DNA of 61,448 bases, the filler included, from Dirinaria sp. TL-2023a (taxonomy: Eukaryota): the NCBI GenBank assembly GCA_051941275.1. It is 18 parts of 18 records of this genome, joined end to end, with 100 filler letters (N's around TTAATTAATTAA, not from the genome) between each part and the next. Parts side by side here need not be neighbours in the genome. Positions count along the whole stretch, not along the records: positions 10,385 to 13,742 come from JAVEBF010002064.1; 17 more parts are not named here. One strand, written 5' to 3'. A program made the position numbers and the translations under genes. A model generated the notes under the pieces. That model searched no databases and was not told where the DNA came from. It saw nothing but the letters and a program-made list of their open reading frames with translations. Positions 1 through 60,251 of the stretch are shown here, piece after piece (within the stretch, counting starts at the first letter, position 1; each line of letters begins with the position of its first letter).

Positions 1-1
1 G

Positions 2-1903
2 AGCAAGATTGAAGTCAGAACAGCCTACGATACCCTAATACAAATGGGTGAGAGACCAACTCGTCCGATCCGATGCAATCCGCGCTGAAGGCAAGTCATA
101 GTCGATGAAGAGCTTTGTTACGAAGATTTTGAAAAAATCGAGATACTCTTCTACGATGGCTCTAAACCAGATGGGCTTCTTGAGCTGACGGAGACTGGTT
201 TTATTGCAATGCACTGGGCTAAGGAAGCCCGGCAGTTCGAAGCAGAGTTACGACGATGGCAGAAATTTCTCGATGCCCAGCAATGGAGACGTGAGCATCG
301 GCCGGAATTTGCAAGAGAAGAGGAGATGAAGCGGCAGCGATATCCGCACGATCCACACCTCACAGCAAGCCTGAAGAAGCTGAAGAACTGGAAGAAGTAT
401 CAAGTCTATTTTCAAAAGGGCATCGACCGATTTAAGAAGATAATCGAAGAGGCCCGACGAGCGGTGAAGACAATACAGCGGAAAGATCCCGAAGTGATCG
501 CGAACAAGGGAAAAGTCCGTGAGTATAACGACGAGAACTGACTACATTTTATAGAAACCAAGCGCGAACGGCTCGCCGCCGAAGAGAAACGATTGAAATG
601 AGCCAAGCAGCAGCTTCCAGCGGTTCTCTCCGAATGCGCTGCATCATTGACGGGACAGCCAACATCTCGTCGTGAGATGGAGAAGAGAAGCGAGCTCAAA
701 GCCAAAGAAGCCTTCAATGCTCTTGTAGACACAGACGAGAGACCGACTCGTCCGACCCGACCGATGTCTGACAATCAGGAGCGCGACCACACGGACGAAC
801 ATCTTCACGTCCTCTGCCACTGACAGAGTGAATGTAGTCAGTTCGAAGAAGAGTTGAGGGAATGAAAGAAGTTTCTAGACTACAGGCGAAAGAACGAAGC
901 GGACGAAAGAACGAAAGTGCAGCTGAAAGAACAACAGTCCGCAGAGACTACGACTCAGATGAATCTCTGAAAGAACCATCTGGTCTATCAACAACTAGAG
1001 ATCGAGAATGCTAAGCAGTGAGTGGAGTTCTGACAGCGACAAGTGCAAGAATGCCAGGAAACCGAGAATCATTGCGCACAAGAAGAGTGGGTAAATACAG
1101 CATACCGATATCATTCCATAGATGAGGACATGAAATCACATGTGAAGGAAACGCGAAAGCAAGTCCGACCTGCAGAGATGCAGTTGAAATGGGTAGAACA
1201 ACAGCTTTCAGTCCTTGCGGAGCGCGCCGACTTGACGACGAAGATATCAACATCCAATCATCTCAAGAATCAAGTCAAACTACCGAAAAGAACATCGAGA
1301 TCGAGTCAAGCAACACTCAAGAATCTTAGATCTCATCAATCTGACAAATCGGCCCGACGAGGTAATCAGGACAAAAAGAAAAATAGAGCTTCAGCAGATT
1401 CTACACTTGATCCAGTCTATCCATCAATAGTATTAAAAGCTGCTGTAAGAAAAGCACCGAGCCGTCAACGACAGTCCAAGACTCTCGCAGAGCATAGTGA
1501 CGGTCAAAACAAAGGCCCTAACGCAACGATATCACCACTGTTACCTGCCAATTTCGCCCTGCGCAGAAGCAGCCGATTGTCTAATAACGAAAAGAGGTCT
1601 AGTGCATTGAATGCCAGTTTGGCTGTGGATCTGAGTAACAGCACACGTTCTCTACCTATCGTTCTGCGTAGAAGCGATCGACTATCTAAACGGAAAGAAA
1701 GAATGAGAATGTCAATCGCTGATACAGCTGTGAACTCAGTCGTGTTCTCGCAAACAGATTCGTCGCGACGTCTTCCTCGACTCAAACCCAAGATTCACCG
1801 TGCAGACAGCAAATCAGATACGAGTTCAGTCGTAAAACCTCGGGGAATATCAAAGAGACAGAAAAGCAACTTTTCACGAAAAATGATTAGAATCCATAGT
1901 TAA
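2..1903 (+). pseudogene. 5'-truncated pseudogene of an uncharacterised fungal protein with an internal repeat and a basic Ser/Arg-rich tail
   Basis: One frame (that of ORFs 209..541 and 1043..1903) interrupted only by TGA stops at 86, 539, 599, 821, 863, 968, 1019 and 1031, mostly at Trp-like positions. Repeated unit AYDTLIQMGERPTRP...HWAKEARQFEAELRRWQKF versus AFNALVDTDERPTRP...H*QSECSQFEEELRE*KKF. Confidence 0.7.
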
Positions 1904-2400
1904 GGATGATGTTACCGAAAGTCGATTTTGGTTCAAGGCCTACAGTGAGGGGCCAATCTTTGCTAGATAGATAGACCGAGATCAATCAAGCAACGGAGGA
2001 TTCGAATCGAGTGTTCGAACGCCTGTCTCATTTGATCTTCAACCAAAGTAGACTAATTCGGCGAGCTGCTTGCGCTCCTCGTTCTGAGTCGGGTTCAATT
2101 TTGCTAACGAGCGCCTGATAGTGACGTATGAATACTGAATGCCACGAAGAGTTTGAAAGAGACGACTAAGATGTCTAGCGATGATTCGATGTCGACCTTG
2201 TGATGAGATTGTCGTTAAACTCCTCCACAGCTTACATTCACTCCCTTTAGCTTTAATCACAGATATTCAAACATTCGATCATTTTGAAGACAGCAGCTTA
2301 GGATTGTCCGTACTAGACTGAAACTAAATGATCCTGTCGTTATCGTCACCAATCGAGAGTTGAGACTCATAGTCGTCATCGAGAAAGAGTATCCTCAAAC

Positions 2401-3363
2401 CGAATGTTGCAACTGATTTGCGACTCCCAGAATAGTGGCATGTTAAAGCAAATACTTGTCTTGACCACGATCGTGTATCGATCTATCAAGCTTAGTGAAT
2501 TGACATCACTCATTGAAATGCCAAAAGGCGTTGCTGACAGCCCGATCTGACTAGAAGAACTTGTAAAGCATTGCAGCTCTTTCCTTACCATTCGTGAAAG
2601 CACAGTTTATTTTGTTCATCTGTCAGCCAAGGACTTTGTGCTGAAAATTTCGTCGAACAAAGTATTCCCTTCTAGAACGGCGATAACACATTACGACGTC
2701 TATTCGAAGTCAATTGAAGTAACGTCAAAGATACTACGTCGCGACTTGTACGAATTGTGTGCTCCAGGCGTCCACATCAAGCAAGTACAACAAACTAATC
2801 CGAATCCTTTGACCAAAGCAGAATATGCATGTCTTTACTGGGTAGACCATCTGGATGAATGCTCAAAGACTGTTAAGGTCGTTAGAAACGATCTTTTCCA
2901 TGACGGTGCGATTACCCAGTTTTTGAGCAAGCAGTATCTTTACTGGCTCGAGGCATTGAGTCTTCTTCAGAGTGTCTCAAGCAGAGTGCTTTCAATCATC
3001 AAGTTAGAGACAATAATTCAGGTTCGATCTAATTCTATATTTCCATTGACTCTTAATGGATAATCTAAAATAATATTAGAGGCAAGCAAATGCATCTCAA
3101 CTTATTGATCAGATTCCAGATGCTCGCCATTTGTTCTGTAATGCTTCAGCGCTTCTATTCAGCCCGATGAATAGCTTTGTAAAGAGCATTTAATTCAGAA
3201 AAGCCAAAATGGGTTGCGATGAAGATGGGCATGAAGAACGACTGATCGGGCTGCCTTCAAACGCTTCAAGGGCATTCGGGTGGGATTCGAACTGTAGCCT
3301 TCTCGCCGGACGACAGACAGCTGACGTCTGATTTCATCGACAGCACGGTCAGGCTTTGAGACG
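2401..3363 (+). pseudogene. NACHT-WD40 (HET-E/NWD-like fungal NLR) pseudogene fragment: post-NACHT helical region and first WD40 repeat
   Basis: Motifs CSSFLTIRESTVYFVHLSAKDF, YACLYWVDHL, YLYWLEALSLL and N*SGCLQTLQGHSGGIRTVAFSPDDRQLTSDFIDSTVRL*D. In-frame TGA stops. No P-loop found upstream. Confidence 0.85.
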
Positions 3364-6048: not shown

Positions 6049-6746
6049 ATCTACCAAATCGTACGCACAGACTGGACCGGAAGATCTTTTCGCGATGCGG
6101 TGCAGTTATTGAACCGTGTGGTGGAGTCACTGCATGGATTGACTACCTTAGGAGAAATTCTACGGGGATAAAGTACTGTATGTAATCTTACAGTACAGTA
6201 CATCTTTACGTAGGATCGGGGTTTGCGGAGTCTATTCGTAATCGGGCCTAGCTCCTTGTTTCTCCCAGCATATGGCGGGGGAAAATGCCTCCCTACAGAA
6301 GTATATGGTGAGGTGGCATGCAGCATAGGTACCGCACTCATTTCTCAGCTGCGATTCGAATCATACTGTACTTATTATATTGATGGACAGCCACGAAAGC
6401 CCAAAACTTGTACCCTTATGTGATAAGCTAAGCCACTAGTGAAAAGCTCCTGATATAGAGATTCATACACAGTGGGCACCGACAGCAAAGCATTAACAAC
6501 GCCTTGGGATAAGTAGCATCCTGCAAGCGCTTGCTTTGCAGTTTACATATCGTTGCATGATCACATTCTTGCCGAGGTTCTGCCTTCCCGAGTTTTGAAG
6601 GCCTTCAAATACCTTGTGAGCCCCTGAGATATGCTTGCCCATAAGTGCAACCTGGCCCTTCGGAAGAAAGTTGGCCTCTACTAGAAGAACCCGACGCTCA
6701 TTCATTTTTCACTTCAGACCTACAGCTTCATACTCCCAGTCCCACA

Positions 6747-10384: not shown

Positions 10385-11077
10385 ATATCAAATACATTAA
10401 TACAAAAGATCGTTTACAAACGACGAAAACGAAAAATATAACAGACATCATGAAGAACGTATTGAATCTGATGAAAAAAAAAAACGCAGAGATCTCACAA
10501 ACGATCATGAAAAAACAAACGAATAAAAATAAAAAGAAAATATTTTATAACGTTAAGAACATGATATTTTTATCGAGTAAAAACATTGTCATCGATAAAT
10601 TTTTAAAAAAAATTGAAAATAAAATGCTAGAATCTTTCTCGATAATCAAAATCATAAAAATTTTTTATGAGCTTCAACTCTCTGATATTATGAGAATACA
10701 CAATGTATTTCACTCGAATCTGTTGCGCAAAGATTTCGAAAACTCTTTATCGAGTCAAATACAAAAATCTCTCGACAAAATCGTTATCAACGAAAACGAT
10801 GAATAAGAGCTGATCGATATAATCAGCTCGCGCTGACATTATGAGAGACTACAACATCGTTGTCGATGAATAAAAAAAAAGAGTAAAGATATAATATGAT
10901 ACGATATCGATAATGACGAGTTCATGCATGCGAAAAACATCACTCAGAATTATCATCATCGATATCTCGACAAAACGAAAAACGTCAACAATAATAAAGT
11001 TTCGCAAAGACGTCATCGACGTCATGATTAAAACATACACGCGATGAGAACATCGTTTTCTTAAGAGATAGAGATAA
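10385..11077 (+). mobile_element. Ty3/Gypsy chromovirus 3' end (integrase C-terminus, chromodomain, polypurine tract), heavily mutated
   Basis: LESF...YELQLSDIMRIHNVFHSNLL (degenerate GPF/GPY-type region), then DE*ELIDIISSR*HYERLQHRCR* (chromodomain). Purine tract aagagatagagataa lies directly before the LTR. Confidence 0.85.
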
Positions 11078-11326
11078 TGTTACGAGTCTAATTCTCACTG
11101 TTGTTACTCGAGTCATTTTTTACAAAATTTTTGTATGTGATGTTGAGTTTTGATCTGATCGAGATTAACGCATTCGAAATGATGATCGATTCGATCGATC
11201 AGGGTTCAACGCTTACACATTTATAATATGTCTGATTTCAGTTTATAAATTTCTTTTCTTCTTCATGTTTTGTGTATTTAGTTGATAACATCTGCATAGA
11301 TTATACTTTCTACATCGATTCTGACA
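11078..11326 (+). mobile_element. 3' LTR (249 bp) of the chromovirus
   Basis: Starts TGTTACG right after the purine tract and ends CTGACA. Its last ~60 bp recur inverted at 11754..11813. Confidence 0.7.
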
Positions 11327-11753
11327 ATAATCTCGATGTAATCGTAATAATATTTGATCGTCTGTTTTCAAAAACATGCTCTGATGTTTAAAATTATAAA
11401 TTCTAGCTGTCTGTGTTTGTGCGAAAACTATGATATTCGCAACGACTATTCGAGTGATCACGAAAATGAGTTTCACGTCAGATGATTTCGTAAATTCTAA
11501 TAAATCGATCGATTGCACGAGAGTGAATTCATAAACAACTTCATTAAAAATATGCTCAATCGTTGTAAATCGATCATTGTTTATATCTCGTTATATACGT
11601 GATAAAATCATAAATTATTACGTGTGATTTATCAAATCGATCAAATAAAATGTTAAAATTATTTCAATCGTTTAATTCGTACGCTCATTTTGATCGTCGA
11701 TCTGCGAGTGATAAATCGTGATATACATAAACTTGATGTCTAAACGATTGAAG
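11327..11753 (-). mobile_element. Integrase fragment of a second, older Gypsy-type element (host of the insertions)
   Basis: ANIIVFAQTQTARIYNFKHQSMFLKTDDQILLRLHRDY matches the A.AFAQ...K..YD.KH.P..L..GD.V.LRLH.GY integrase C-terminal pattern. It is cut exactly at the LTR end. Confidence 0.7.
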
Positions 11754-11813
11754 TGTCAGAACCGATGCAGAAGATATGATCTATGCAGATATTATCAACT
11801 AAATACACAAAGC
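11754..11813 (-). mobile_element. Truncated LTR end of the same family as 11078..11326, in opposite orientation
   Basis: TGTCAGAACCGATGCAGAAGATATGATCTATGCAGATATTATCAACTAAATACACAAAGC aligns with the reverse complement of 11267..11326, with mostly transition differences. Confidence 0.75.
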
Positions 11814-12223
11814 TGTTACGATCCGAGTTCGACACCCTAGGGTTAATAGAGGGTTAGGAAGCGTTCAGTAAACCTTGGCGGTCTTGGCGCCAAGGAACTA
11901 GTGCAAAATGCTCAGTGTGATCAGAATGCTCAGTGTACTCAGTATCACTGAGCACACTGAGCAACTGAGCAGAACTGAGCAAGAGAATTTTGACAGTTCT
12001 GACATCGTGTATATAAATCTTCAACACGACGCTTTTCTAGCATCGTGTTCAACATCTTTGCAATAGCTATCTACTGCTCAGAGTAATTTGTATCTTGTCG
12101 TGATATTGTCATATCATCTCGAAGACATTCGTTGTTTCTTGACAGATCTTTTCAACAGATCAAACTCTAGCATCTTTTCTGTTTAGAACCTAACCCTAGA
12201 TATTAGATCGATAGAACGCAACA
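11814..12223 (+). mobile_element. 5' LTR (about 410 bp) of a further LTR retrotransposon
   Basis: TGTTACG...CGCAACA inverted termini, TATA-like gtatataaat near 12010, and the gag ATG follows at 12242. Confidence 0.7.
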
Positions 12224-12241
12224 ACATTGAACACTTTTAGA

Positions 12242-13742
12242 ATGTCTATCTCAGAACAACGTAACTCTATTTCAAGCATCACTGACTCAGCAATCTCTCG
12301 CGACTCAATCAACAATAAACGTAACGATAATGACAAAATTAAAATCAACAAATTTGATATTTATAAAAGCGAGAGAGAAGAACTCGACGACTGACTTTTA
12401 CAGATGAAGTTGTATTTTGTATTTAATTCAGTATTTAGCGATCAAAGAACGATCTTCGTCTCAACGTTTCTTCGGGAAAAAACATAATACTAAATCAAAT
12501 TAAAGCTTCGAACAAGACTCGATGATGAAGAAAACATCGATGATAAAATTTTTGCGAACTTCAGCAATTTCAAAACAGCTATACGAAGAATCTTTGAAGT
12601 TTTCAACGAGAAAGTCATCGTCGAACGAGTTGTACAGCATCTTAAACAAATCAAATCAACTTCGAATTATGCAGCGCGATTTCAGAAATACGCGAAACTC
12701 ACGAAATGAGATCACGTGACACTGCAAATCATGTTCAAACGCGAACTCAAAAATACGATCAAGAACGAACTTATGCGCGATGAACGAGAATACGAATCTC
12801 TCGAAGAATTAATCGAGATCGTCATCGATCTTGACGACAAACTATACAAACGAGTCATAAAAAAACGTTTCGACGACGAATCACGAGAAAAAACTAGTGT
12901 TTTTATGTATCGGTTCGTTGAAAACGATCGAAAGAAAGACGATTCTGTGAGAAAACTTTACTACGAGACTATGTCTATGAAACTGAATTCGACCGAACGC
13001 AAGAAAAAGAATCTTAGAGTTAAACAAAATAAAACTAACAAAACATGTTATTTATGTGACAAGTCAAATCATTTCGCGAGAAATTGTCGAACTAGAAGCG
13101 CGATATCTAGAGAGCAATTGAATATGACATTAAAAAAAGACATATCTGACGATGAAGAAATCTGCAACGATGATGCAAGCTCGACAAAAAGTGCAGTATT
13201 CACGTCAGAGAAAGAATACTATTTTGTGAAGAATCTCACAGTATTTCAACAAGTTCTGAACGAGACAGCATCAGACAATACATCTGTCTCGACTCAGAAA
13301 ATTAATACGACTATCGAACAAAAGCAGAAAACAGAATTCGACGACGAATTCGAATGAAACAACGACGCATTTCGAGAACTGAAAAATGACACATTCGACA
13401 AACAAACACAGATTGACGTAATCGACGCGATCGAAAAAATGTTAAACAGCGATGCAACTCGAGAACAAAAAATTTCGAAATATACAAACACATCAGTGTT
13501 AAATCGAGAAAACGCAACGATAAAAAATTGATACGATTATCGACTCTGTTGTACTCATCACTATTAAATACATCGACAGCGAGAATGCGATGACGCAGTG
13601 AATGATATAATTTAAGAGACAATTGATGATATGAAGTTACTCACGAGACAGCGATATGAGAAAGTCAATTGTCGATTAACGTGTATTATATGCGTTTCGA
13701 ACGAGATACATCGTCAAAAGAGATAAGAAAACTGAGTTTTCA
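12242..13742 (+). mobile_element. Retrotransposon gag pseudogene with CCHC zinc knuckle
   Basis: KINKFDIYKSEREELDD*LLQMKLYF, FKRELKNTIKNELM...LEELIEIVIDLDDKLY and CYLCDKSNHFARNC (CX2CX4HX4C). Multiple stops. Confidence 0.88.
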
Positions 13743-14398: not shown

Positions 14399-16282
14399 TG
14401 CGGTTGAGAGTCGTGTGAGTGGGGTTGGGGGGGGAAAGACTTAAAAAATGGACTTTTGGCCGTAGAGACTGCAATGAGATATAATTCAAGCTTGAAGAGA
14501 TATCTGTATAGTATGATATAGCAGAGATGAAGAGTAGAGCTCGTAAGGTCGATGTTGTCGATAAGTCAAAGGCAGAAGAATCAAGGAGAAAAAGTGATTG
14601 ATAGAGATTGGGTCATGGGAGGGATTGATATATGGGGAATTGAGCTCGAAATCTGAGCGTTCGACGGTGGAAACCTACGGACGCCCATGTCTTACTTCCC
14701 ATAGCTTTATCAACGAAAGCTGCGCGCCTGTTCGTTGGATGCCACCAAATGCCGCTTGCTGAACCCCAAAGGAATGGCACGAAACAATACCTGCCAGTAT
14801 TTTATCCCAACAAAATAAGTCTGATATAAGGCTGAGGCGCCAGCCACGAATGTATGTTTAAGAGACTTATGGCTGGAGCGAGGAAAGAAGGCCAAAGAAA
14901 CGCTGAACAGAAAGGGGCAAATATTTGAAGAGGAAAGGAAATTAAGCAATGGAGTGAACGGAATATATCTAGCATAAGCGGCCATTGTAATAGAAAATCA
15001 TGAAGCACTTGAGTTGTAGACAACCGAGTCAGATACATTACGTCTGAGAAGCTTGAACAAGCTCGGTCAGGCCACTGTTCCATCAATACCGGTACAATAC
15101 AGGCTCAACGGTTCACGACGGCGGTCCGGTGCCATCCGCGAAGCAATTGACCGATGCTCGCAAGTGTCAACAAACAGATTGGAGCAATGGCTTCAAGCCA
15201 GAAGCAGTGCGACGGATTCGGCGGTTTGCTCCAGGGCACATGAAGTCGGGCACATAAAGTGCGGTGTTCGATTCTTGTGGTGTACCTGATGTTACTTGGA
15301 GCTCACCTAGACACAATATATACCACTCCCGATATAGTCCCGCTCAGCTCAGGGTAGCAGTCATAGCCCAGAGATACGCTTAGCGCAGGCCCATTTGCTT
15401 GCGCTCCTCGGCCTTATCAGTCTTGAGTCGCCTGAGCTCGGACTCGTAATTTTCATGATCCATATATGATTCCAGAAACCCTTCTCCGAACGAGGATTCA
15501 TTCGTGGGAGTGTTGATGGCTCAGAGCCCATCGTCGTACGACTATCAACCCATGATCAAGCTGAGCGAGTACGGAGCTGCAACCCAGGTATTTCTTTGCT
15601 TTTTAGGATGACCGATTTTCCATGGTAAGGTAATGCTCTTTTCTGGATGCAAAGCGCTGCTACATCTTTACTACTATGTTGGACAATTGATGTGGCCGTG
15701 CGCGTCGCAAACCCTCTCAACGTCGCTAGTGTATGATGTTATGTCATCAATTTCTATCTCTGTGATTCGTCAGCTCGTACATTGATTGGATATCTACTGA
15801 GATACTACTGTACTTTCGTTAAGCGACCTGGCGACTACAAGTAGCTTGAACCTCCTAGTTTGCTCCACATTTCTCGAATTTATTTCTCGAATTTACCTGA
15901 CTTCTTGATAAGGCCGGGCCAGAGTACTAAGACGTTAATTAATGGGACTGAACGTAGGAGTCAAAGATATTACTCCAGAAAATTTTCCAACTTATTGAGT
16001 TGAAGAAGGATTAGTAAATATTTCAATTGCATAGCAGATTTCATATTTGTTGCAGTTTTCCCCTATGTCAAACACGACGTCATTCGCAAATAATATTATC
16101 TAGTTGCATAGTACATAATTCCATTCCTCCACTCGAGACTGCTCTAAATTTCGCATTTCAACCTGCCAGAATCAGAACGATTACACCATTATTGTGCCAG
16201 CGCCATTGGGAATCGAACCTAATATTGATATCAAAAACCTGACTACAGAGACCACGGAGTGAACAACCTATATAATCACACA

Positions 16283-17198
16283 ATGACAATAATCCCAATC
16301 GCCGAAGGCGAAATCGACTTCCAAGTCTCAGGACTCGAAACGCCATGCAAAACCTTCTACAAAACCATCGGCCCCCTCTCCTCAACCCACTCCACCCCCT
16401 CAAAAACACCACTCATAATCCTCCACGGCGGACCAGGCGCAGCGCACGAGTACCTGCTACCCTTCACAGACCTCTACACGAAATTCTCCATCCCACTAAT
16501 CTTCTACGACCAAATCGGCAACGGACGATCCACGCACCTCCCCTCCAAAACCGGCGACCAAGAATTCTGGACCGAATCGCTCTTCCATCGCGAGCTCGAT
16601 AATCTGATCGACCATTTCCAGCTGCGCGACACGGGCTTCGACATCCTGGGCCAAAGCTGGGGCGGCATGATGGGGAGCAGCTATGCGGCTTTGAAGCCCC
16701 AGGGCTTGCGGAGATTGGTGCTCGCCAACGCACCGGCGGATATCGAGCTGTGGAAGCAAGGGCTCGAGAACCTGCGCGCGAAGCTGCCGGATGATGTGCA
16801 GGAGGCGCTGAGGGAGGCGGAGGAAACGGGCGATTTCGAGAGTAAGGAGTATGAGGACGCGATCACTTTTTTCTATAAGCGGCATTTATGCACTGTCAAA
16901 CCGTGGCCGGCGAAGGAGGTCGAGGTCGCGTTGAAGTGGTTGACCGAGTACCCGGATGTGTATGCGACGATGTAAGTTTTTTTTTTTAAAAAAATATATC
17001 CCATTTCCCCCTCCCAAAAAAAAAAAAAAGAAATCCCTAACCCCTCCCCCTAACACCCCCTAGGTACGGCCCCTCGGAACTGACCATAACCGGCACCCTC
17101 AAAACCTGGTCCATGCTCCCGCACCTCAAAGCCATCCAAATCCCAACTCTGGTCTACAACGGCGAGCACGACGAAGCGCAGGATATAAGCGTAGAGCC
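16283..17198 (+). CDS. Proline iminopeptidase / L-amino acid amidase (alpha/beta hydrolase, peptidase S33), 3'-truncated
   Basis: HGGPG, YDQIGNGRS and the nucleophile elbow GQSWGG. Intron 16972..17063, then MYGPSE...PTLVYNGEHDEA. Confidence 0.92.
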
Positions 17199-27744: not shown

Positions 27745-28858
27745 TATTGTATTATTGGATGGAGAAAGAGCTTTCTCGTGCTTGAGGATCGGGATGGCAA
27801 TGCTGCACCTTATTAGTAAGGTCGAGGGGGTACGTATTTCGATCTGGAAGTACTGTAATGCTTTCGGTTTCAACGGGTATAATTGCCGAGTCGTAGCGTT
27901 TTCAGAACTCTTGGGGATGCTTGGCGTTTGGGTGGGATTTTTATTTCTTCCCTCAACCACCGCTTGGTGCCTTCATTCCTACCTTATTCTCATAATCTTA
28001 CGGCAGAGTATGCGCAAGATTTGAAAAGTATTTTGGGTATGAATGTTCTCATCCGCAGTTTTGGCTGAGAAATTAATTGCCGACATGAAACTGAAATCAT
28101 GATGAGCTCCCCTGCTCTGATGCAATTGAAATCATGAAAGCATCTTTCAAAACTCCGAGGCTTCTTCGATGATTTCAAAATATCTGACTACATAATTCGC
28201 TCTCATTCGACGATGAAAGAAGAAAAGCGCCAAGGATTCTGGAGAGTCTTGAAACTGTCAACAGAGCGGGATCTAGGGCCGCTATCTTAACGCTCCCAGG
28301 GGTGCCTACCATCTCTACCTTACCTTTACCCTACTGCCTTAGTAAGGTAGGGAGTCATGCCTGGATCTGCATCGTTCACATGTCGTCACTGATGTTAAGG
28401 AAAGGTTCCTATCAATGGCATCCAACCAGCAACCACGACTTTGCTGATAAGTGTGGTGAAATGGTCCGCGTTGATAATGTAAAGTAGATGATTTTCAACC
28501 GAGGTAGCCGCGACTTGGAGATTACTAGTCTCTGCGGTCGAGCTGCTATATGCGGCGCTTCTCCCGCTCTCCCCCGGAAGACTGCTGGCGAATGGCGGAC
28601 TGCTAGCTCTCCGAAAAATCTGAAACTATGACGTTGAGTGGCATCACGATGGAAATGTTTATATGTTATCTCATTATTAATTCACGCTGTTATGCAGCCA
28701 AAACGACAGCAGCTGATCAATGGCACCATAAGGCATTCTTCGGCTTTAAATTCAACCATATCCCTCTCATCTCCCATTTCGCATTTGTCGTTTGATCCTC
28801 TTGAGCAGGGTATATTTGGGAATATTAAATTCTTTCTTGCAATTCAATTCATTGCAAA

Positions 28859-30083
28859 ATGGTGCAGAACAAAGGTCTCATCTTCAAGTCGATCCCTTCG
28901 GGTTGGCCAAAGCCTGGGGAGAACCTTGCCATCGAGGCACGCGACTTCGACCTGGACGCCGCTCCCCCCAAAGGCGGCATTACGACCAAGAACTACCATG
29001 TCTCCTTTGACCCTTACCAGCGTGGGCGCATGCGAGCTCCTGACGTGGTATCATACGCGCCCCCGTTCGAGCTGGGCAAGGCTATCACGAACAGCGCTGT
29101 GGCCAAGGTACTGAAGTCCGACAACTCCAAGTTCAAGGATGGGGACCTTATCACAGGAATGCTGCCGACCGAGGAATACTCGGCCATATCTGAAGACGTG
29201 GCCGACGAATTTTGTCGAAAGCTGGAAAACCCGTGGAACCTGGACCCTAGACTATTCATTGGAGTTCTGGGTATGCCCGGCCTGACGGCATATTCCTCCT
29301 TCTATAAAATTGGACAACCAAAGAAGGGTGAAACCATATTCGTGTCCGCGGCCAGTGGAGCTGTGGGCCAGATCGTCGGTCAACTGGCGAAGCATGAAGG
29401 TCTCACTGTCATCGGGAGCGTCGGCAGCGACGAAAAGCTGGACTTCATCAAAAAGGAGCTCATGTTTGACGAAGGCTTCAACTACAAGAAGGAAAAATCT
29501 AGCGACGCCCTTGCAAGGCTAGCACCGAACGGCATTGATATATACTACGAGAATGTGGGCGGAGAGACGCTCGATGATGCTCTGGCTGCGATGAACAATT
29601 TTGGTCGAATTGGTATGGCTTCGATGACCTCTTCACTCTGCTGCCCCTAATCGACCGGTAGTTGCCTGCGGTATGATATCATATTACAATGCTGCTTCGA
29701 CGGATGAAATGTATGGAGTTAAAAATTTGCGTTTTATCGTCTCAAAGCGTCTTAAGATGCAGGGCTTCATCGTAGGCGACCCAGATACAGGACCTGTATA
29801 TGCGGCAGAGCACCAGAAGAATGTCCAAAAGTGGAGTATGTCTTCGTGATCCCCTTCATTCTAGATCGGATCGACTGCGCTCTGGGGAGCTGGCTTTGAG
29901 AACGACATTTTCCAAGTAGCGTTTGACCAAAAGACTGCTGACATTGTACCAGTACATGACGGCACCTTCATAGCCAAGCAGAGCATCACAAAGGGGATCG
30001 ACAATGCCATCGATGGTCTTCTCGGGATGCTGAAAGGGGAAAATTTCGGCAAGGCCATCTTGACTATTGCCGAGCTAGACTAA
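28859..30083 (+). CDS. NADP-dependent alkenal/prostaglandin reductase-like oxidoreductase (MDR superfamily)
   Basis: SFDPYQRGRMR, LGMPGLTAY, VSAASGAVGQIVGQLAK and DIYYENVGG. Two introns; ends GENFGKAILTIAELD*. Confidence 0.93.
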
Positions 30084-31186: not shown

Positions 31187-32884
31187 TCAGGTGCCTGGCT
31201 CAACTACTTCGCGGATGGAATTGAGACCGTTGCTGGACGTCTCGGCCACGCGGGACACCTCGCCGGTCAAGAGCTTCGTGGCAGAGGATTGACCGCCGTT
31301 GACAGAACCCTTTCCATTACTGACGGGTTTGGTGTTCCCTCCTACCATTTGCGCCACTGGTGCTGACGACGACGACGGTCCCACCTTATCCACAGTCTCG
31401 GCCTCAGCCTCAGCATCATCATCGTCATCCTCGACGAGAGTTATGATAAACTCCCATTCCTTCTTTGTCACCTTGGAAACGCTTAACCGGCTCTGGCGGA
31501 GCGTTTGCATGTGCTGCAGCGCGCCCCCCTCCTTGGCGTATTTCTGGAGTTCTTTGAGTTTGAGCAGGGTTGGGAATTTGCGTCGGAAGGTCACGTGCAC
31601 TTTGCACCACTTTGGGCTCTCGGCGGTGGATTTGGGGTCGTAGTACGGGTGAGAAGGGTCGAGGGCGGTTTCTACGCCCGTCTGTCATCAGTATGGCAAG
31701 CTAGAAAAGGTGGTTGGGAGATGATATTAAGAAGAGGAAGGGGAAAAAAGGTTAGAAAAAAAAATTCATAGAATCCAACGGGATGATGGCTGAGTGAGAA
31801 GAGATCTCTTACCGTCTGGGCTATGTTCATGTACAATCTCCATTATACCCGCGATACCGGGCACCTTGCAGTTCGAATGGTAGAAGAAAGCAAGGTCTCC
31901 TTTCATCATCATCCGCATATTGTTCCTCGCTTTATTTATCTCAAGTCAGCAAAAGCCCCTTAATTTTTTTTGCAAAGGCATGTGGTCAGGCATACCTGTA
32001 GGGTTTCGAACTCCATCCCAACCCTCCGGCTCGGCAGTAGCCTTCAGGTCATCGATCGAGAATTTCACATCTTTGCCTTTCTCGATGCGTGACTCTGGCT
32101 CTGCTTTCATAAGCCAGTAGCTAGGCCCATCATCCTCCGCTTCATCATCAGCTTTCTCATCTTCAGAGTCACCAGTCCCATTGGCCGGAACAGCGACCGG
32201 GACGCTGACACTGCGAGAGACAGCGTTGGAAAGCTCGATGTCCGCTTCGCCATTCAATTGAGCACCGTTGGCTTTACCTTTCGCAGCTTTGCGTCCCTTT
32301 GCGGATTTGGTGACTTTGGTGGCGGCGAGCGTGTCCGAAACGGGCGCTGCGGAAGCTTGAGCTTTTGCAGTCGCTTTCGCTTTGCCTTTGCCCTTGGCTT
32401 CTTTCACGGCGACGACACTACTGGTGGGTTTCCCGTTGGCGGTTTGACGGGTCTCACGTGCACCGGAAGGGGAAGCGGAGGCCTTTGCAGCTGCATCGCT
32501 TAAGCGCCTGGAAGAGCGTGTTGGCGTGGCCTCAACCTTACCCTTGGACTTGGGCTCTTTCGCCGAAGTCGGTGCCAGTAGTGGCTCTGTCGGGCCCTGG
32601 ACAGCTACTTCAGACGTGTTCTTCTTTGGTCGTCCGCGTTTTCGTGAAGCATTTGCCTCGACGGGCTCTGGAACAATCTCTTGCTCCTGCTCCTGCTCCT
32701 GAGCCTCCTTGGGAGGACGTCCGCGCTTTTTAGGTGGAGGCGCGTCAGCTGCAGGATCTTGAGCATTTTCTTGATCCTTGGCCGCTTTTGGTGGACGTCC
32801 CCGTTTAGCAGGCGGTGCAGCCTCTGCTGTAGCAGAGAGGCTAGGCTCTGGGGCTACTGCTTTACGCTTCCTCTGATTCGCCAT
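31187..32884 (-). CDS. AT-hook plus EVE domain protein (THYN1-like)
   Basis: Three KRGRP AT-hooks. EVE motifs [28 protein letters not shown] and KWCKVHV across two introns. Confidence 0.92.
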
Positions 32885-33704
32885 GATTGCAAAGATGAAG
32901 ATGGAAAGCGAAGGTGTTGAGTTGACTCGTGACCATGATTTGGGAAAAGAACAAAAAAAAAGGTGAAGTGAAGTTATTTGTAGTTTGAGGCGAGCTTTAT
33001 CGATAATCGCTTAGCGGCTAAATTACGGCTGCCCCTTGGAAGAGGTGGACACTTGCAGGGGATGAAGAAAGAGTTGTATGGTTAGTGTAGAATTGCTAAT
33101 CTATCTCCTGGCTTCATGCAACACCTTAGATCGATCTTGCGAATATTTTTTCGAGAAAAAGGCCTACTCTCTAGGTACAGGATCATGTCAACGAAAACTC
33201 AACCGTGCACGAGCTGATTCTCCTCGAACGTGCCTCCTGTCTGATCCGAGCAAAGAGTGATCTTGTACAGGTTTATGAACTCATGACTCTTATCACAGCC
33301 CTGAATCCTTCTACATCCTAACTCACGAGGTCAAATTCGATTGGCGCAGACCAGGGTATTTGAGATCTCGCTCATATAATAGTCATCCACACTTTTAACC
33401 ATTGATATAAACAGTTTGGTAGTAGTGTTGTAATAGACTCTGGCCTTCCATCATACCGCATCAAAGTCGTGCTCTCATTCCATTCGTGTGCACAAGGCTG
33501 AAGTCATGACAGCGCTGAAGAACGAGAATACCGCTAAGAATACGCTGCAAAGCAAAACCCCAACACCATGCTAGTTGCGCGCCTTCAGGCATCGCAGAAA
33601 TCAACTTTTGGTATGCCGCCATCCGATGAATGTGCAACGCCTCGATGCCTGCGGTTGTGGGAATCGTCATATGCCTCCAACGCCAACAATGCCGTTATCT
33701 GTGA

Positions 33705-34324: not shown

Positions 34325-37300
34325 NNNNNNNNNNNNNNNNNNNNNNNNNNNNNNNNNNNNNNNNNNNNTTAATTAATTAANNNNNNNNNNNNNNNNNNNN
34401 NNNNNNNNNNNNNNNNNNNNNNNNGTTATTTAAGAACGACGTTCTCCTTGAAGTTTGATTTACGAGTGTTCCCAAATCTCAAACTTTTATTTGAACCTTT
34501 TTTCGAGAGATAGAAAAGAAAGATAGAGTCCGAGTTAGATTGATCTCAATGATTTCGATGTTGTCAGTATGCTTTGATTGATATTATCAGCTCGTTCTTG
34601 TTTTTCAACTCCAAGCAACGATTCTTCGAATAAACTGTAGCAGCTTCGAATTTCTTCAGAATTTCTCTTGAGCATCAGACGAGCTCTGATCCTTTTCATA
34701 CTCTTTCCTAACTGCTTCTTCAAAATTGAGTTCTCGATAAAAAAAATCGATGATTTCACTTAAGAATAGCTTCGTTTGCTGTGCAAAAAGAGATCTCTTT
34801 CGAATTCGATTCAAGAGTATTCTCATATTTCATTTGATCTTTCTGTCGAGAAATCGAAAACAAAGATGAAGTTCGAGTTAGATCTGTCTCACTTTTCGAT
34901 GTTTTTAGTATAATTCTGTTGATAATTCTAGCGTTTTTGTTTTCCATTTTCAAGCGACGACTTTTCGAAGAGGAGCAATTTCAGCTTCATTGTCTTCAAG
35001 GAAGACGTTTCAGATGGGATTTGCGATCGATGAGATAAGACTGATTTGATCCTTGATAGAATTCTCCAATGTCAGTTTTAGGTTTTTTCTTAGGCCTCTT
35101 CGATTCCTTTGTCGAGGAATCAAAATTAGAGCGCCTGCCGTCCCAGCGGCCATTAACAGATCTCAACGAGATCCTTTGATCCAGACATTCAGACCTTGAA
35201 TACAACTCTTTGGTCATTCCTGCTGTGCATCTTGGACTTATGCTGAGAAAAGACAGTTAGTGTACCGAGACTTATCGAAGACGAAATGTGTTTCGGTCAA
35301 GTCAGAGCTTGGACGCAGGCATAAGACGATGTAAAGACTAACCGAAGAAAGAGACACTTCGTAAGCATATCTCTTGAACCGCATTCTGTGCTGGAATTTA
35401 TCGTTTCACATAATCGACAAACGAAGCGCGTGCTGCGATTTGAGTTTGATTTTCTTGCCAGCTTTGGTCGATCTCATTGATTGACTCGTTCAAAAAGCCC
35501 GGCCAAGCGATAGTCGTATCCACGCCAAAGGGTAAAGACCCCCAAGGCACGGTAAGATAGCTTTGTTTAATGATGGAGATATCCCAATTTCGACAGTGAT
35601 CTCGTAACGACTTTTCCAGGGAACGCGCAGATATTTGAGACCGCTTTTGGTATCACACAAGGTCCATGGCAAGGTTGAGCCAGCCACCTGGGGTATCAGA
35701 TGGTGAGACGGTGCTTCGATCATGATCTTATCATGCTACGCCCAGGTATCCCAATCGAATCCCAGCTTTTGTTAATTTTACAGCACACAGTATATCGCTG
35801 ATGCCTTTGAAGACGTGGCTAATGGAGAAGAGGAATGGTTTGGCGCACTTCCATCGTAGCGGCTGCCGAAGCTTTTGTATGAAGCATAGGGGCGGCACGA
35901 TAAAGAAATCGCTTTCCTGTGGCAGCGTTAACGACATTCAGAAGTCGTCGAACCAAGATACTCACTTCAATAGAAGCGCAGCCGCGTCCTATGAGGCTAT
36001 GGGTTGTTTGACGGCTCGGTCATGGCCCTCTGTGAAGACTCCGCGGTGATGACGGAGCATCAAGTGGCAGATAGAAAGGTCGGTGTCTGTTATTCATGCA
36101 AAGGGTGCAAGACTCAGTTCGTTCAAGTCGGGCAGTCCCAAGGTGGTTATGAGCTTGCTGTCCTCAGCTCCAGTTTCTAGGTTTTTCGTTTCTTTTCATT
36201 GTGTTTCTGATTATTCCCATCTCTTGAAGGTGCTTGCAAAGCTGTTGACGATTGGGTCTCAGAATGGTGTGGTCCGACAGGTGCACTCGAGCCTCAGGCT
36301 ACAGCTTGTATGGGATTCCTCGTACTCCAAGTCTTACTGAGCATCCAAGGCGATCTCATGAGGATCTCCGTTCCCGTTCGTCTCAAATGCCTTCGTATCT
36401 GGGACCTTTGTGCCGTTAGAGGACTTGAATATTGTTAAGGGAGGAGAGATCATACCACTTTCAAGAGCGGTCGATGCTCGAGCTTGAGCATCAAGTGAGC
36501 AGGCAGCTGCATTTGAGCTACAAGCTGCCATATATTCGAAGATTGCTCGTACCGCCATACTGGCTGGCTTCTGAGCGCTAGCTGGTTAGAAAGACTTCTC
36601 TTCTCCTTGTCCTCAAAGAGGCACCTACTCGAGATTCCAATGCTGGTAATGTAAATGGAATATGAAGTGCAGAAGATCATCTTGATCTCAGAAGACTTGA
36701 GGTATTAATTGGGCAGATGACAACAACAATGTGAGATATGTCAAGGATGAGCTATTGATGCAAAAGTGATCCTTCCAGTTGACAATCATCACCAGGATCA
36801 AGGCAGACTAAAGCCTGCACAGTCAAAGACAGTGAAAGCCAAGATTGAAAGCGATTTTGCCACCTAAAGTGATTCAAGGACCGCTTATCACCAACAACCT
36901 TGAAGAGTATGCAAAGTAGCAATAGCAGAAAGTGAGGAAGAATGCAAGAAGAAAGTGAGGGAGAAAGATGGTGTGTGGGAAGTGGGGGGATTCCAAATCA
37001 GCTTGTTGCACGAACTGTGCAATTATTGTGTCAGATTGTGTCGTTGCGGCTGCGCAGTTCTTTATTTCCAGAATTAGACCACATCCATCAGATGACCAAG
37101 CCACCTCTTAACTCAGCTAGAGTTTTCCATGGGCTTGGAAGGCAAGGTCAGGGATCTTAGTGGCCTTGTTCTCAGGCAGCAAGGGCTTCCCCATGTGCCA
37201 CTTTTTCATGTCTTTCCATACTCTGGAGCCCCTGCAAGCAGCCTTCATTCAGATATACAGAGCCCGGCAATGTCACTTTTCTCTTCCGAATCTAGGATAG

Positions 37301-56624: not shown

Positions 56625-58072
56625 ATGATCTCTTCACTTGACCCAATCGTCATCGAGCTCAATCTACCTTCCGAAGCAGCTCAACGTAGTCAAGAAACAT
56701 CACTGCATTCATTCCTAGCTTCTCTTACAGTCTCGGCTTCGGTATTCGATGCTGAGATTGCGCTTTTCATTCTACTGAAGAACAAACTCACGCTATTGTA
56801 GTAAGTCATCTACATGATAAGTTTTAAAATCAGCAGCTAACAAACATCAGTCAATCTCGAACGTACCTTATATCGAAGAGTCAGCGTACTGAAAATTCCT
56901 CTTCAGGACCATTTCACTGAATTTCTGCTCTATTCCAAACATCAGACCGAGTCATCATTCAGAATTCAGGTCTCGATGCATACTTTTTTCTTCGTTATCT
57001 TCGCGCACTTTTGAGAATATTCGTTTGCCTTAGTCTAATAATCATTTCTGTCCTGATCTCTTTGAATCTTGTGTATGAAAAGAATGCGCCAGATGATGTC
57101 CAAGATCTGAATAAGTTCAGTTGAGCTAATGTAGAGCTGACACACATCAGCTTCTACTGAACTCATCTCGCAATGGTCTTAATCGTCATTATCTTGATAT
57201 GCCACACAATATATGTAGAATTGATCGAATATGTTGGCATTCGACAAACGTATCTTGAATCTTCTCGACATCAGATTCAAGCCTTCGCAAACGCTATTCT
57301 TGTGACGGATATTCCTGAGAAATTCTTGAATACTCCCAGTCTAACCCGTCTATATGACGTATTCTCTGACGACGTACGCACCGTCTGAATCAATCGAGAC
57401 TTGTCAAAGTTATTCAAAAAGATTGTGAAGCGAAAGAATGTAGTCAGTCTATTGAAGATCGCGGAGATCAAGCTGATCAGAGCGACGATGAAATCTTCCG
57501 ATGACAAACTGAGCTATAAGCTCACAAAGATCGAAAAGAGTGATTTGAATTACGTTCATGATGAAGATGAAGAATCTCGCTGAAAACGATATCTTAGAGA
57601 AGACGACCGTGAATATATGCGTCTTTCAATTTTCAATCTTAACTGAATGCCATTCATCCCTTTCATAGAAAGAAAGATGAATATCATCGATCACTGTGAG
57701 CAAGAGCTATCTCGTCTGAATAACGAGATCGATCAAGATCAGCAACAGCCTGAGAGATATTCACTTCTGAACTCAGCGTTCATTCAATTCAATACTCAAG
57801 AAGCGACATATATGGCTTGCGAGACGCTTGTTCGATGCGCTCTCTGATGTTTCAAGTCTCACTATCTCGAAACTTTGTCAGAGAATGTCAAATGAGAGAA
57901 TTTGTTCGAGACATGAATGACTCGATACGCACGCACAGCATTGATGATTGTCTCCGCCACCACACTTATTCTAGTATGATCTATTCCGATCGCTGTTACA
58001 GAAATAATATCTCAGCTTGTTTATCTGACGACTTTATGATCTTGGCTGCGTTGAGTCGATACACTCTCGACG
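56625..58072 (+). pseudogene. CSC1/OSCA (DUF221, Phm7/Rsn1-like) channel pseudogene, 3'-truncated
   Basis: SFLASL, GLDAYFFLRYL, NAILVTDIP, V*INRDLS and LNSAFIQFNTQEA. About nine in-frame TGA stops, mostly at conserved Trp positions. Confidence 0.9.
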
Positions 58073-60209: not shown

Positions 60210-60251
60210 CTACTCTCTCAATCCGAGTAGCAAAGTCAAGTGGAACAAGAC

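Follow-up and report, generated by a model that had tools for sequence, protein, structure and literature searches.

[quoted passage not shown] Its neighbour order in Neurospora is CpA > CpT > CpG > CpC, and the CpA preference is, to our knowledge, built into every RIP detection tool. Retroelements are also inactivated by APOBEC3G-type editing of CC, which acts on retroviral cDNA, at the 3' C and on one strand. The target of RIP is described as CpA (PMC2621366, PMC12543289), and the classical thresholds for calling it are a TpA/ApT ratio of at least 0.89 and a (CpA+TpG)/(ApC+GpT) ratio of at most 1.03 (PMC3897900, PMC2621366). Other contexts are on record: CpG and CpA for MATE in Aspergillus nidulans, TpCpG for Ty1 in Microbotryum violaceum, and CpT beside CpA in Magnaporthe. 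A CpC>TpC class and the index (CpC+GpG)/(TpC+GpA) already exist in RIPCAL (both PMC2621366). RIP has been reported in the lichen fungi Endocarpon pusillum, Cladonia rangiformis and Xanthoria spp. [quoted passage not shown] A recent kingdom-wide screen came to the conclusion that the CpA preference is common to RIP-like defences, and no Lecanoromycete appears among the 130 species that it lists with a strong signal (PMC12543289). A CpC-dominant RIP-like context was not found reported in our literature search.

The window, that is, the whole stretch of DNA analysed (61,448 nucleotides, filler included, from Dirinaria sp. TL-2023a, GCA_051941275.1), consists of 18 short contigs separated by the spacer N44-TTAATTAATTAA-N44. 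One entire unplaced contig (10385..13742, 3358 bp, GC 0.338, no strand assigned) is a hypermutated block. It contains 10 CC dinucleotides where 98.8 are expected (observed/expected, o/e, 0.10) and 14 GG where 93.4 are expected (o/e 0.15), whereas CG is found 196 times against an expectation of 96.0 (o/e 2.04). The other o/e values are 1.58 for TC, 1.49 for GA, 0.91 for CT, 0.81 for AG, 0.87 for GpC, 1.01 for CA, 1.13 for TG and 0.64 for TA. TCGA occurs 59 times, with 10.3 expected (o/e 5.75), and the o/e of TCG is 3.28. The sum of CC and GG is 24, compared with a mean of 191.8 (sd 11.8, minimum 155) over 2000 mononucleotide shuffles (z = -14.2). An earlier note on this DNA had claimed that both dinucleotides are missing from about 10385-11190 and rare in 12230-13742, while CpA, TpG and CpG remain plentiful. 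The counts bear this out: the run without CC or GG extends from 10385 to 11201 (817 bp), only four are found in the second stretch (GG at 12474, 12475 and 12912, CC at 12993), and CA, TG and CG have the o/e values given above. Of the 24 residual CC and GG, 13 belong to an island at 11823-11895 that looks normal, and three more lie at 12189-12196.

The contig is short and unplaced, which would suit an artefact of mis-assembly, chemical damage or an AT-rich compositional quirk. We consider such an origin extremely unlikely. AT-rich controls (20 windows of 300 bp with GC <= 0.40, taken from other contigs) are normal, with a pooled CC/GG o/e of 1.01 versus 0.13 within the contig, and the depletion exceeds the effect of AT content. 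Furthermore, the changes track the genetic code of recognisable proteins, and independent public assemblies carry the same scar. The CC/GG depletion of this contig is confirmed as real. Of the 18 contigs, 14 gene-like ones were treated as the unaffected background, and their CC/GG o/e is 0.97. The ratio (CpC+GpG)/(TpC+GpA) is 0.04 in the contig and 0.25-1.14 in the other 17. Both classical ratios lie on the non-RIP side of their thresholds (TpA/ApT 0.62, (CpA+TpG)/(ApC+GpT) 1.08), and TpA/ApT-type indices are blind to the contig, as the earlier note had predicted.

Both CC and GG are near zero in five of five mutated sub-blocks, which shows that both strands are affected. Exhaustive conversion of the 5' C, simulated on the 14 gene-like contigs, gives TC/GA of 1.68 and CpG of 1.54. 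This model accounts for the raised TC/GA and CpG of the contig and thus supports the 5'-C direction. The opposite model (CC to CT, at the 3' C) was rejected; it predicts CT/AG of about 1.6 and GpC of 1.78, compared with 0.91/0.81 and 0.87 in the contig. A mutation model was also fitted to the 16 dinucleotide frequencies, on the premise that the dinucleotide make-up of the ancestor was that of the gene-like contigs. The fitted losses are pCpC 1.00 (jackknife range 0.92-1.0), pCpT 0.19 (0.18-0.23), pCpA 0.11 (0.10-0.12) and pCpG 0.00 (0). A CpA-only model has a squared error of 1.6e-2 versus 3.3e-3, about five times worse and barely below that of no mutation (1.8e-2). The fit supports a process that saturates CpC, has CpT and CpA as minor targets and leaves CpG untouched; the target is not exclusive. 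Outside the island 10 CCN remain, and four of them are CCG. A protected CCG sub-context was considered and rejected, the CCG share being 0.28 on one partly mutated contig and 0.19 on the other, which is background.

The contig is best explained as an accumulation of dead pieces of Ty3/gypsy retrotransposons (pol C-terminus, 5' LTR and gag) from a lichen-forming Lecanoromycete. The features found in the substrate are those of a Ty3/gypsy LTR retrotransposon: a CCHC gag, an integrase C-terminus and a TG...CA LTR. The pol C-terminus relic (10387..11031, + strand) includes an integrase SH3-like domain. It has five stops (3 TGA, 2 TAA) and no Pro, Gly or Trp in 215 codons. Its match to SH3_Tf2-1 (E 7.9e-6, 26.3 bits) lies under the curated cut-off of 30, and the stretch after this domain is presumably chromodomain-like. 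A word-based protein search with the pol relic gave no match among longer proteins at E <= 0.001. The Pfam matches of the relics are all under the curated cut-offs, as is expected from the mutation.

Downstream of pol, we read a purine-rich, polypurine-tract-like stretch (11063..11077, +) that adjoins TGTTACGAG at 11078. The latter appears to resemble the LTR starts of L004, a metagenome element whose 3' LTR is preceded by a similar purine run. The hypermutated non-coding stretch that follows (11078..11811, +) is possibly a 3' LTR of the upstream element. Its similarity to the downstream LTR is not significant, and the proposal that 11032-11811 and 11790-12260 are copies of one LTR was rejected (local score 82; shuffles mean 73.8, maximum 98.5), with a second alignment in agreement. 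The stretch contains a 58-nt inverted repeat with arms at 11269-11326 and 11754-11811, which are 90% complementary; the arms have six differences, and only two of these are of the CpC type.

The 5' LTR of the gag-bearing element (11814..12226, +, 413 bp, TG...CA) was assigned by alignment to L004. The two LTRs are distantly homologous, with the start TGTTACGA, the LTR end and the leader in common, and their global score is 237 (shuffles 146 +/- 12, maximum 172.5). The first ~82 nt of this LTR (11814..11895, +) are an unmutated island that holds TAGGGTTA-like motifs; between 11812 and 11899 there are 5 CC (4.1 expected) and 9 GG (8.2 expected). The boundaries of mutation are sharp, since this normal 82-bp island sits inside a mutated LTR.

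The gag relic (12242..13741, +) has the CCHC knuckle CYLCDKSNHFARNC, ten stops (5 TGA, 5 TAA) and no Pro, Gly or Trp in 500 codons. The end of the contig falls within the gag-bearing element. A phmmer search with the gag relic returned 1143 relatives (best E 1.3e-74). A first scan of metagenomes, with the gag of this contig as query, gave 211 pattern matches, none of them confirmed. No further copies of the element were found within the window by blastn or tblastx; Rfam gave no matches over the whole window, and a tRNA scan of the contig (10385-13742) gave no genes.

Codons of the gag relic were compared with those of 17 unmutated homologs, mostly only 26-44% identical, across which 161 columns are conserved and from which the ancestral codons were inferred. 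Unchanged columns number 94, while 43 need C>T/G>A alone and 24 need other changes; among the 67 changed columns, simple events thus account for 43 and not for 24, as judged from homologs rather than sister copies. The 49 inferred events comprise 29 at CpC, 13 of the CpT type (8 ambiguous), 6 at CpA and 1 at CpG. GGN is kept in none of 12 conserved Gly columns (GAN 7, AGY 2, AAN 2, GTT 1), and CCN in none of six Pro columns (TCN 3, TTN 2, CTT 1). CGN is still present in 10 of 17 Arg columns, and TGN or CAN in none. Jointly, the two translated relics have no Pro, Gly or Trp in 715 codons.

The earlier note had pointed to particular motif changes. The change of CGKP to CDKS is seen in the knuckle CYLCDKSNHFARNC, for which the homolog consensus is CYxCGKxGHFARxC, and LESF is present in the contig translation. 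A change of HP to HS was not confirmed; the translation there reads IHNVFHSNLL. As to the change of Trp mostly to TGA, three of six conserved Trp columns are stops (2 TGA, 1 TAA), and the 15 in-frame stops of the two relics are 8 TGA and 7 TAA, with no TAG. The central claim is supported: dinucleotides, simulation, codon comparison and model fit agree on a C-to-T change that hits the 5' C of a CpC, whichever strand carries it.

The same scar, partly saturated, is present on another contig in a pseudogene of an RSN1_TM/PHM7_cyt channel paralog (56780..58072, +) with 13 stops (12 TGA and 1 TAA). Its 13 conserved Trp columns include 10 TGA, 1 TGG and no TAG. Among 23 Pro columns, TCN is found in 14, CTN in 2 and CCN in 4; GAN occupies 9 of the 16 Gly columns and AGN none. 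Only C>T/G>A is needed in 66 of 180 changed columns, and CpC is the site of 52 of the 67 inferred events. These counts bear on an AID/APOBEC-like single-strand DNA cytidine deaminase, which would edit retroelement cDNA or exposed single strands at CC. CC is a known APOBEC-type motif and retroelements are the main victims here, but editing of cDNA would leave plus-strand G-to-A only, whereas in each of the five sub-blocks one and the same strand has lost CC as well as GG. The base that decides lies 3' of the target, as in RIP, not 5', and the 3'-C (A3G-like) model was rejected. The channel pseudogene has Pro to Ser 14 times versus Pro to Leu twice, and Trp to TGA 10 times versus no TAG. The scar thus shares with APOBEC3G editing the CC dinucleotide and the inactivation of a retroelement, but it differs in the 5' C, in the involvement of both strands and in its presence on DNA other than retroelements, namely the pseudogene of a cellular gene and the non-coding inverted-repeat stretch. 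We regard a deaminase of this kind as very unlikely.

Weaker forms of the depletion occur elsewhere in the window. At 1..3363, on another contig and with no strand assigned, the frames are rich in stops and give a single weak WD40 match; we tentatively read them as NLR-like (CC/GG 0.75/0.56, TC/GA 1.41/1.39). A partly depleted block without a family match opens a further contig (34425..35100, likewise unstranded, CC/GG o/e 0.21-0.53). Within the window, the scar lies on the transposon relics and on two pseudogene-like contigs and is absent from the 14 gene-like contigs and the 82-bp island. The signature has a direction, affects both strands and is confined to dead elements and pseudogenes.

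Ten further gag homologs of lichen or metagenome origin, one of them from a Dirinaria MAG, are almost without Pro and Gly. Their conserved Pro cells hold Ser in 18 of 32 cases and Leu in 7, and their conserved Gly cells hold Glu/Asp in 30 of 68 and Ser/Arg in 9. At the metagenome loci L001-L010, CC/GG o/e is 0.00-0.44 in most 500-bp bins of the transposon blocks, with a few bins at ~1, and 0.80-1.26 in the flanks. Copy pairs within a subfamily of the related metagenome family differ by 641-893 transitions and 40-75 transversions (ratio 9 to 17) at a divergence of 14-19%. The CpC bias of this family is much weaker, about twofold, with C>T rates of 0.69 at CpC, 0.38 at CpA, 0.32 at CpG and 0.33 at CpT. 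Its 230 reconstructable CC sites give 616 TC, 357 CT and 484 TT cells. Differences between LTR pairs of the metagenome elements number 98 at CpT, 44 at CpA, 23 at CpC and 20 at CpG, in raw counts that are unnormalised and in which saturated CpC sites are invisible; we draw no conclusion from them. In metagenome blocks at GC 0.14-0.21 no context is spared, and the standard indices become positive (TpA/ApT 1.03-1.13). Given the weaker CpC bias of this family, the near-exclusive targeting of CpC may not hold in general, or two processes may overlie each other. In the second case, a CpC-specific mutator would be joined by a weaker RIP of the ordinary kind, or by background decay, in the other contexts, consistent with the minor CpT and CpA losses in the fit and with the blocks mutated in all contexts. 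However, one enzyme with a graded preference accounts for the same data, and CpA is not favoured in the copy alignment (0.38 vs 0.32 for CpG and 0.33 for CpT). We give such a superposition a small probability.

A somewhat better, though still unlikely, alternative involves no active repeat-sensing mutator. Instead, cytosine methylation with a CpC bias would extend across heterochromatin, and the 5-methylcytosine would deaminate spontaneously and slowly over long times. It likewise yields two-stranded C-to-T change restricted to silenced DNA, and the gradation among the contigs of the window, some of which have CC/GG o/e of 0.45-0.75, is in line with it. However, a saturated CpC, a fitted CpG loss of 0 and CGN in 10 of 17 Arg columns would need a very strict methylation context, and we know of none so strict for fungal DIM-2. 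The normal 82-bp island is flanked by saturated blocks, and the transition/transversion ratio of ~9-17 at 14-19% divergence in the related family looks like bursts and not like gradual decay.

As the probable maker of the scar we favour a mutator that resembles RIP, would be directed at repeats and has shifted its preference for the 3' neighbour. In this reading, the Ty3/gypsy pieces were inactivated by C:G-to-T:A hypermutation whose strongly preferred substrate is a C with a 3' C, so that CpC becomes TpC and, through the opposite strand, GpG becomes GpA. Both strands were attacked, at CpC to saturation and at CpT and CpA lightly, with CpG left alone. The outcome is CCGG to TCGA, Pro to Ser, Gly to Glu/Asp and Trp to TGA. 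The process would be homology-directed and probably premeiotic, the version of RIP of this lineage, and a RID/DIM-2-type cytosine-methyltransferase-like enzyme with the order CpC >> CpT > CpA > CpG may carry it out.

The scar resembles the RID- and DIM-2-dependent RIP of Pezizomycotina such as Neurospora crassa in that it is two-stranded, C:G-to-T:A and dense to saturating, the 3' neighbour decides and stops are made; relics and pseudogenes are mutated, and neighbouring genes are intact. It is unlike Neurospora-type RIP in that CpC is preferred and CpA is minor, TpA is not enriched (0.64) and there are no TAG stops. The variants of MATE, Ty1 and Magnaporthe show that the context preference of RIP-like processes differs by lineage. 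None of these is CpC-dominant as the source describes them (PMC2621366), whereas here CpC dominates and CpG and TCG are enriched (TCG o/e 3.28). The TpCpG hypermutation and CpG loss of the Basidiomycete type are not seen in the contig (o/e of CpG 2.04, TCG 3.28, TCGA 5.75). The RIP of Endocarpon, Cladonia and Xanthoria concerns the same class of organism, with AT-rich transposon compartments and sharp borders. In the available text of these reports it is called by GC content or classical indices, without neighbour context (PMC3897900, PMC12542154, PMC13486527), and the present contig would escape those indices.

If some lineage does have CpC as its main target, too little RIP would be called in lichen fungi, and perhaps in other groups as well, and hypermutated elements would enter databases as false proteins with TGA read as Trp. 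The mutator's choice of context would then be evolvable, and a comparison of orthologs would open up the deaminating enzyme of RIP and its choice of cytosine. A wider reading, which we put forward tentatively and hold to be possible at somewhat less than even chances, is that the lichen-forming Lecanoromycetes share, as a group, a RIP-type defence with inverted neighbour preference (CpC, then CpT and CpA, with CpG spared). Their 'ripped' compartments of 10-20% GC would be its late stage, early and intermediate stages, of which this contig would be one, would be missed systematically by RIP indices and AT-rich k-mer screens, and the altered preference would reside in the target-recognition region of a RID/DIM-2-type enzyme. 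If this is true, these fungi would provide a natural enzyme pair for learning how RIP picks its cytosines.

The window (1–61448) consists of 18 unplaced contigs of 3276–3363 bp, ordered by falling length and linked by N44-TTAATTAATTAA-N44, so genes that lie side by side across the linkers share no genomic neighborhood. The depleted region is exactly one contig, 10385–13742 (3358 bp, GC 0.338). On this contig CC was observed 10 times against 98.8 expected (observed/expected ratio, o/e, 0.10), GG 14 times against 93.4 (0.15), and CG 196 times against 96.0 (2.04). The ratios are 1.58 for TC, 1.49 for GA, 0.91 for CT, 0.81 for AG, 0.87 for GpC, 1.01 for CA, 1.13 for TG, and 0.64 for TA. The earlier note had described CC and GG as absent at the contig start and scarce at 12230–13742; indeed, there are none within the initial 817 bases and four in total in the latter segment. 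Mononucleotide shuffling (2000 replicates) gave a mean combined count of 191.8 (sd 11.8) and never fewer than 155; the observed 24 lies 14.2 sd below that mean. Pooled CC/GG o/e is 1.01 in AT-rich controls (20 windows of 300 bp each, GC ≤0.40, from other contigs) versus 0.13 inside the contig. AT content therefore does not explain the depletion, contrary to the refuting condition set by the earlier note. The ratio is 0.97 on the 14 contigs treated as unaffected background. The depletion is genuine and well outside anything that chance would give.

The contig opens with a relic of the C-terminal part of Ty3/gypsy pol (10387–11031, frame +3; five stops), which matches Pfam SH3_Tf2-1 at E 7.9e-6, under the curated cut-off. 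The stretch after SH3_Tf2-1 is presumably chromodomain-like. By reading of the sequence, the relic is followed by a purine run (11063–11077) and then TGTTACGAG. The non-coding DNA beyond contains a 58-nt inverted repeat, the arms of which (11269–11326 and 11754–11811) are 90% complementary and enclose 427 nt. The arms differ by five transitions and one transversion (n=6); manual reading placed the transitions in CpA (3), CpC (2), and CpT (1), one doublet being two events. A small foldback element or a MITE-like insertion after pol would be a possible origin of this repeat. The 413-bp 5′ LTR (11814–12226) begins with the second TGTTACGA and was aligned to the LTR and leader of L004, a related element from a metagenome (score 237; shuffles 146±12, maximum 172.5). 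We also tried this LTR as a likeness of 11032–11811 and rejected it, there being no significant similarity. L004 is a full-length Ty3 element with 409-bp LTRs (94–502 and 6063–6471; 94.4% identical), and the distance from LTR end to gag ATG is about 18 nt in L004 and 15 nt in the window element. Downstream of the 5′ LTR, from 12242 to the contig end, lies gag, in which 10 stops and a CCHC knuckle are recognizable. A phmmer search of 1.84 billion representatives gave 1143 gag relatives at E≤0.001 (best 1.3e-74).

Product dinucleotides, codons, event contexts, and a model fit are four agreeing lines of evidence on the C-to-T target. TC/GA and CpG are enriched, and CT/AG and GpC are not. When every C before C and every G after G was converted in the 14 gene-like contigs of the window, the simulation gave GC 0.369, TC/GA 1.68, CpG 1.54, and GpC 1.09. 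Conversion of the 3′ C was rejected as a model, since it predicts CT/AG of about 1.6, GpC 1.78, and CpG 0.97, unlike the studied contig. TCGA, the product of CCGG, occurs 59 times versus 10.3 expected.

The pol and gag relics contain no Pro, Gly, or Trp in 715 codons; most of 17 clean (unmutated) gag homologs have about 4–7% Pro and Gly and 1–3% Trp. The 15 stops are TGA (8) and TAA (7), with no TAG. We defined 161 conserved gag columns by ≥60% agreement among at least 8 of the 17 clean homologs; 94 are unchanged, 43 show C>T/G>A only, and 24 differ otherwise. Where Gly was conserved (12 columns), the contig has GAN (7), AGY (2), AAN (2), and GTT (1); where Pro was conserved (six columns), it has TCN (3), TTN (2), and CTT (1). 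At the six Trp columns there are two TGA, one TAA, and three non-transition changes. CGN is kept in 10/17 Arg columns, with no TGN or CAN, and CAR in 5/6 Gln columns. The codon comparison yielded 49 inferred events, which were sorted by hand into CpC (29), CpT-type (13, in 8 of which the 5′ A is possibly itself a mutated G), CpA (6), and CpG (1).

With the gene-like contigs in place of the ancestor, we fitted a single-pass model to all 16 dinucleotide frequencies and obtained conversion probabilities of 1.00 for CpC, 0.19 for CpT, 0.11 for CpA, and 0.00 for CpG. Leaving out one contig each time gave 0.92–1.0, 0.18–0.23, 0.10–0.12, and 0, respectively, and using a single contig as ancestor gave 0.77–1.0, 0.07–0.32, 0.06–0.23, and 0–0.07. 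With CpA as the sole target, the best squared error is 1.6e-2 versus 3.3e-3 for the full fit; assuming no mutation (1.8e-2) is barely worse. Both strands are affected in 5/5 mutated sub-blocks. The earlier note's proposal of C-to-T change at the 5′ C of CpC on either strand is thus borne out by dinucleotides, codons, events, fit, and strands alike.

More than half of the residual CC/GG (13/24) lies at 11823–11895, in the opening 82 nt or so of the 5′ LTR, and three more lie at 12189–12196. Counts at 11812–11899 are ordinary (CC 5, expected 4.1; GG 9, expected 8.2). This unmutated island (11814–11895) carries the telomere-repeat-like words TAGGGTTA and AGGGTTAGG, and toward the end of the LTR an inverted copy, CCTAACCCTA (12189–12199), is likewise unmutated. 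The position of the island amid saturated DNA speaks for a sharply bounded process (borders <100 bp). Homology-limited targeting would account for the island, provided that this U3 segment is unique; alternatively, the island may stem from an assembly join or from conversion at a later time. Context-biased methylation with slow decay is a possible but less likely source of the C-to-T changes, since it fits poorly with the island and with CpC saturation beside zero fitted CpG loss.

The same scar is present on another contig. Contig 54793–58072 (CC/GG o/e 0.60/0.45) carries a pseudogene of an RSN1_TM/PHM7_cyt (CSC1/OSCA-type channel) paralog at 56780–58072 (+ strand; Pfam RSN1_TM E 2.8e-25, PHM7_cyt E 8e-17). 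Its 13 stops are 12 TGA and one TAA. Against 40 homologs (324 conserved columns), the 13 Trp columns read TGA (10), TGG (1), and other (2), with no TAG; the 23 Pro columns TCN (14), CTN (2), CCN (4), and other (3); and the 16 Gly columns GAN (9), AAT (1), GGN (2), and other (4), with no AGN. The 22 Arg columns include CGN (13) and CAN (3), with no TGN. As this is a diverged paralog, 114/180 changed columns are not simple transitions; the 67 inferred transition events fall in CpC (52), CpG (7), CpT (4), and CpA (4). The 5′-C rule is clearer still here, before saturation. Mutation of a cellular-family pseudogene means that the process reaches beyond retroelements. Editing of retroelement cDNA is contradicted by this pseudogene, by the strand symmetry, and by the 5′-C rule.

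Contig 1–3363 is partly depleted (CC/GG 0.75/0.56, TC/GA 1.41/1.39), with many stops in its frames and one weak WD40 match at the 3′ end. Its frames are presumably NLR-like, and the contig probably holds one member of a multigene family, hypermutated in part. Another partly depleted block (34425–35100, CC/GG 0.21–0.53, GC 0.35) stands at a contig start; a search for protein families in all its frames found none. Ordinary-looking gene fragments with normal CC/GG encode DUF4211 (38204–40240, +), AT-hook/EVE (31949–33010, −), a zinc-type oxidoreductase (28829–29647, +), an alpha/beta hydrolase (16229–16972, +), a Na/H exchanger (51925–52611, +), and MoaC (59294–60217, −). The best named relatives of the MoaC-family ORF, on the last contig, are lichen-forming Lecanoromycetes only (Heterodermia aff. 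obscurata, 58%, then Pseudevernia, Wetmoreana, Calogaya, Pyrenodesmia, and others).

Ten further homologs in the gag alignment are likewise almost without Pro and Gly. Their conserved Pro cells (n=32) hold Ser (18), Leu (7), Phe (2), Pro (3), and other (2); their conserved Gly cells (n=68) hold Glu/Asp (30), Lys/Asn (18), Ser/Arg (9), Gly (7), and other (4). The closest, P0020 (75% identity over search-matched stretches, 73% in the alignment), is named as a Dirinaria sp. MAG protein; the other nine are from ENA, Logan, or JGI. The MoaC relatives agree with this Dirinaria match and independently support a lichen-fungus origin of the window.

Scanning metagenomes with another depleted relative, P0029, gave 10 loci in two contig sets (L001–L010). 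CC/GG o/e is 0.00–0.44 in most 500-bp bins of their transposon blocks, with a few near 1 (GC 0.11–0.37), and 0.80–1.26 in the flanks (GC 0.38–0.49), the shift falling inside one 500-bp step. In an alignment of seven full copies (5.2 kb), pairs within a subfamily differ by 641–893 transitions and 40–75 transversions. C>T per copy and site in the five-copy subfamily is 0.69 for CpC (750/1085), 0.38 for CpA, 0.32 for CpG, and 0.33 for CpT. The 230 isolated ancestral CC sites (1610 cells in seven copies) now read TC (616), TT (484), CT (357), and CC (153). The CpC excess and 5′-C bias recur in this family, but weaker; both are also blurred because sites mutated in every copy are invisible. In the most degraded blocks (GC 0.14–0.19; e.g., L002:1501–5500, L009:2501–5000), GpC is enriched 1.8 to 2.9-fold and C after G is least mutated (GCG 0.23, GCT 0.27), a secondary 5′-neighbor effect absent from the studied contig.

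We thus observe the signature, its direction, and its strand symmetry, with its distribution in the window and other lichen DNA. With repeat-induced point mutation (RIP) it shares transitions on both strands, near-saturation, sharp borders, and its victims, namely dead elements and pseudogenes with adjoining genes untouched. Specificity comes from the cytosine's 3′ neighbor, as RIP reads its targets; APOBEC-type deaminases read the 5′ neighbor instead. These features favor a RIP-type process, and we consider it likely that it is repeat-directed with the order CpC ≫ CpT > CpA > CpG. Two processes may also have acted together. The mutator of a RIP-type process would depend on homology, act premeiotically, and be an enzyme of RID/DIM-2 type.

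The Neurospora preference order is CpA > CpT > CpG > CpC. Searches of the main text of openly accessible papers found none in which CpC is named as the leading target of RIP-like mutation; supplementary k-mer tables could bear on this. The RIPCAL paper defines a CpC>TpC class and its index, and the available part of its text gives only CpA, CpG+CpA, TpCpG, and CpT cases (PMC2621366). A common CpA preference of RIP-like defenses is concluded in the accessible text of PMC12543289. In the corresponding portions of reports on Cladonia (PMC12542154), Xanthoria (PMC13486527), and Endocarpon (PMC3897900), and of PMC13535494, RIP is called via GC content or classical indices, without neighbor context.

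The phenomenon is best regarded as RIP-like hypermutation of a variant kind, with CpC as target, a putative RID/DIM-2-type enzyme, and presumed repeat dependence. As the earlier note anticipated, standard indices miss it here: the studied contig (TpA/ApT 0.62, (CpA+TpG)/(ApC+GpT) 1.08) would not be called RIP. The classical indices are positive in the most degraded metagenome blocks (1.03–1.13 and 0.78–1.04), so late stages would be callable as RIP and intermediate ones, such as the studied contig, would be missed. All three Trp residues of P0029 are TGA in the DNA (L001:2161–2844), and it exists as a database protein only because the gene caller took TGA as Trp. Hypermutated lichen transposons thus reach protein databases as false code-4-like ORFs.
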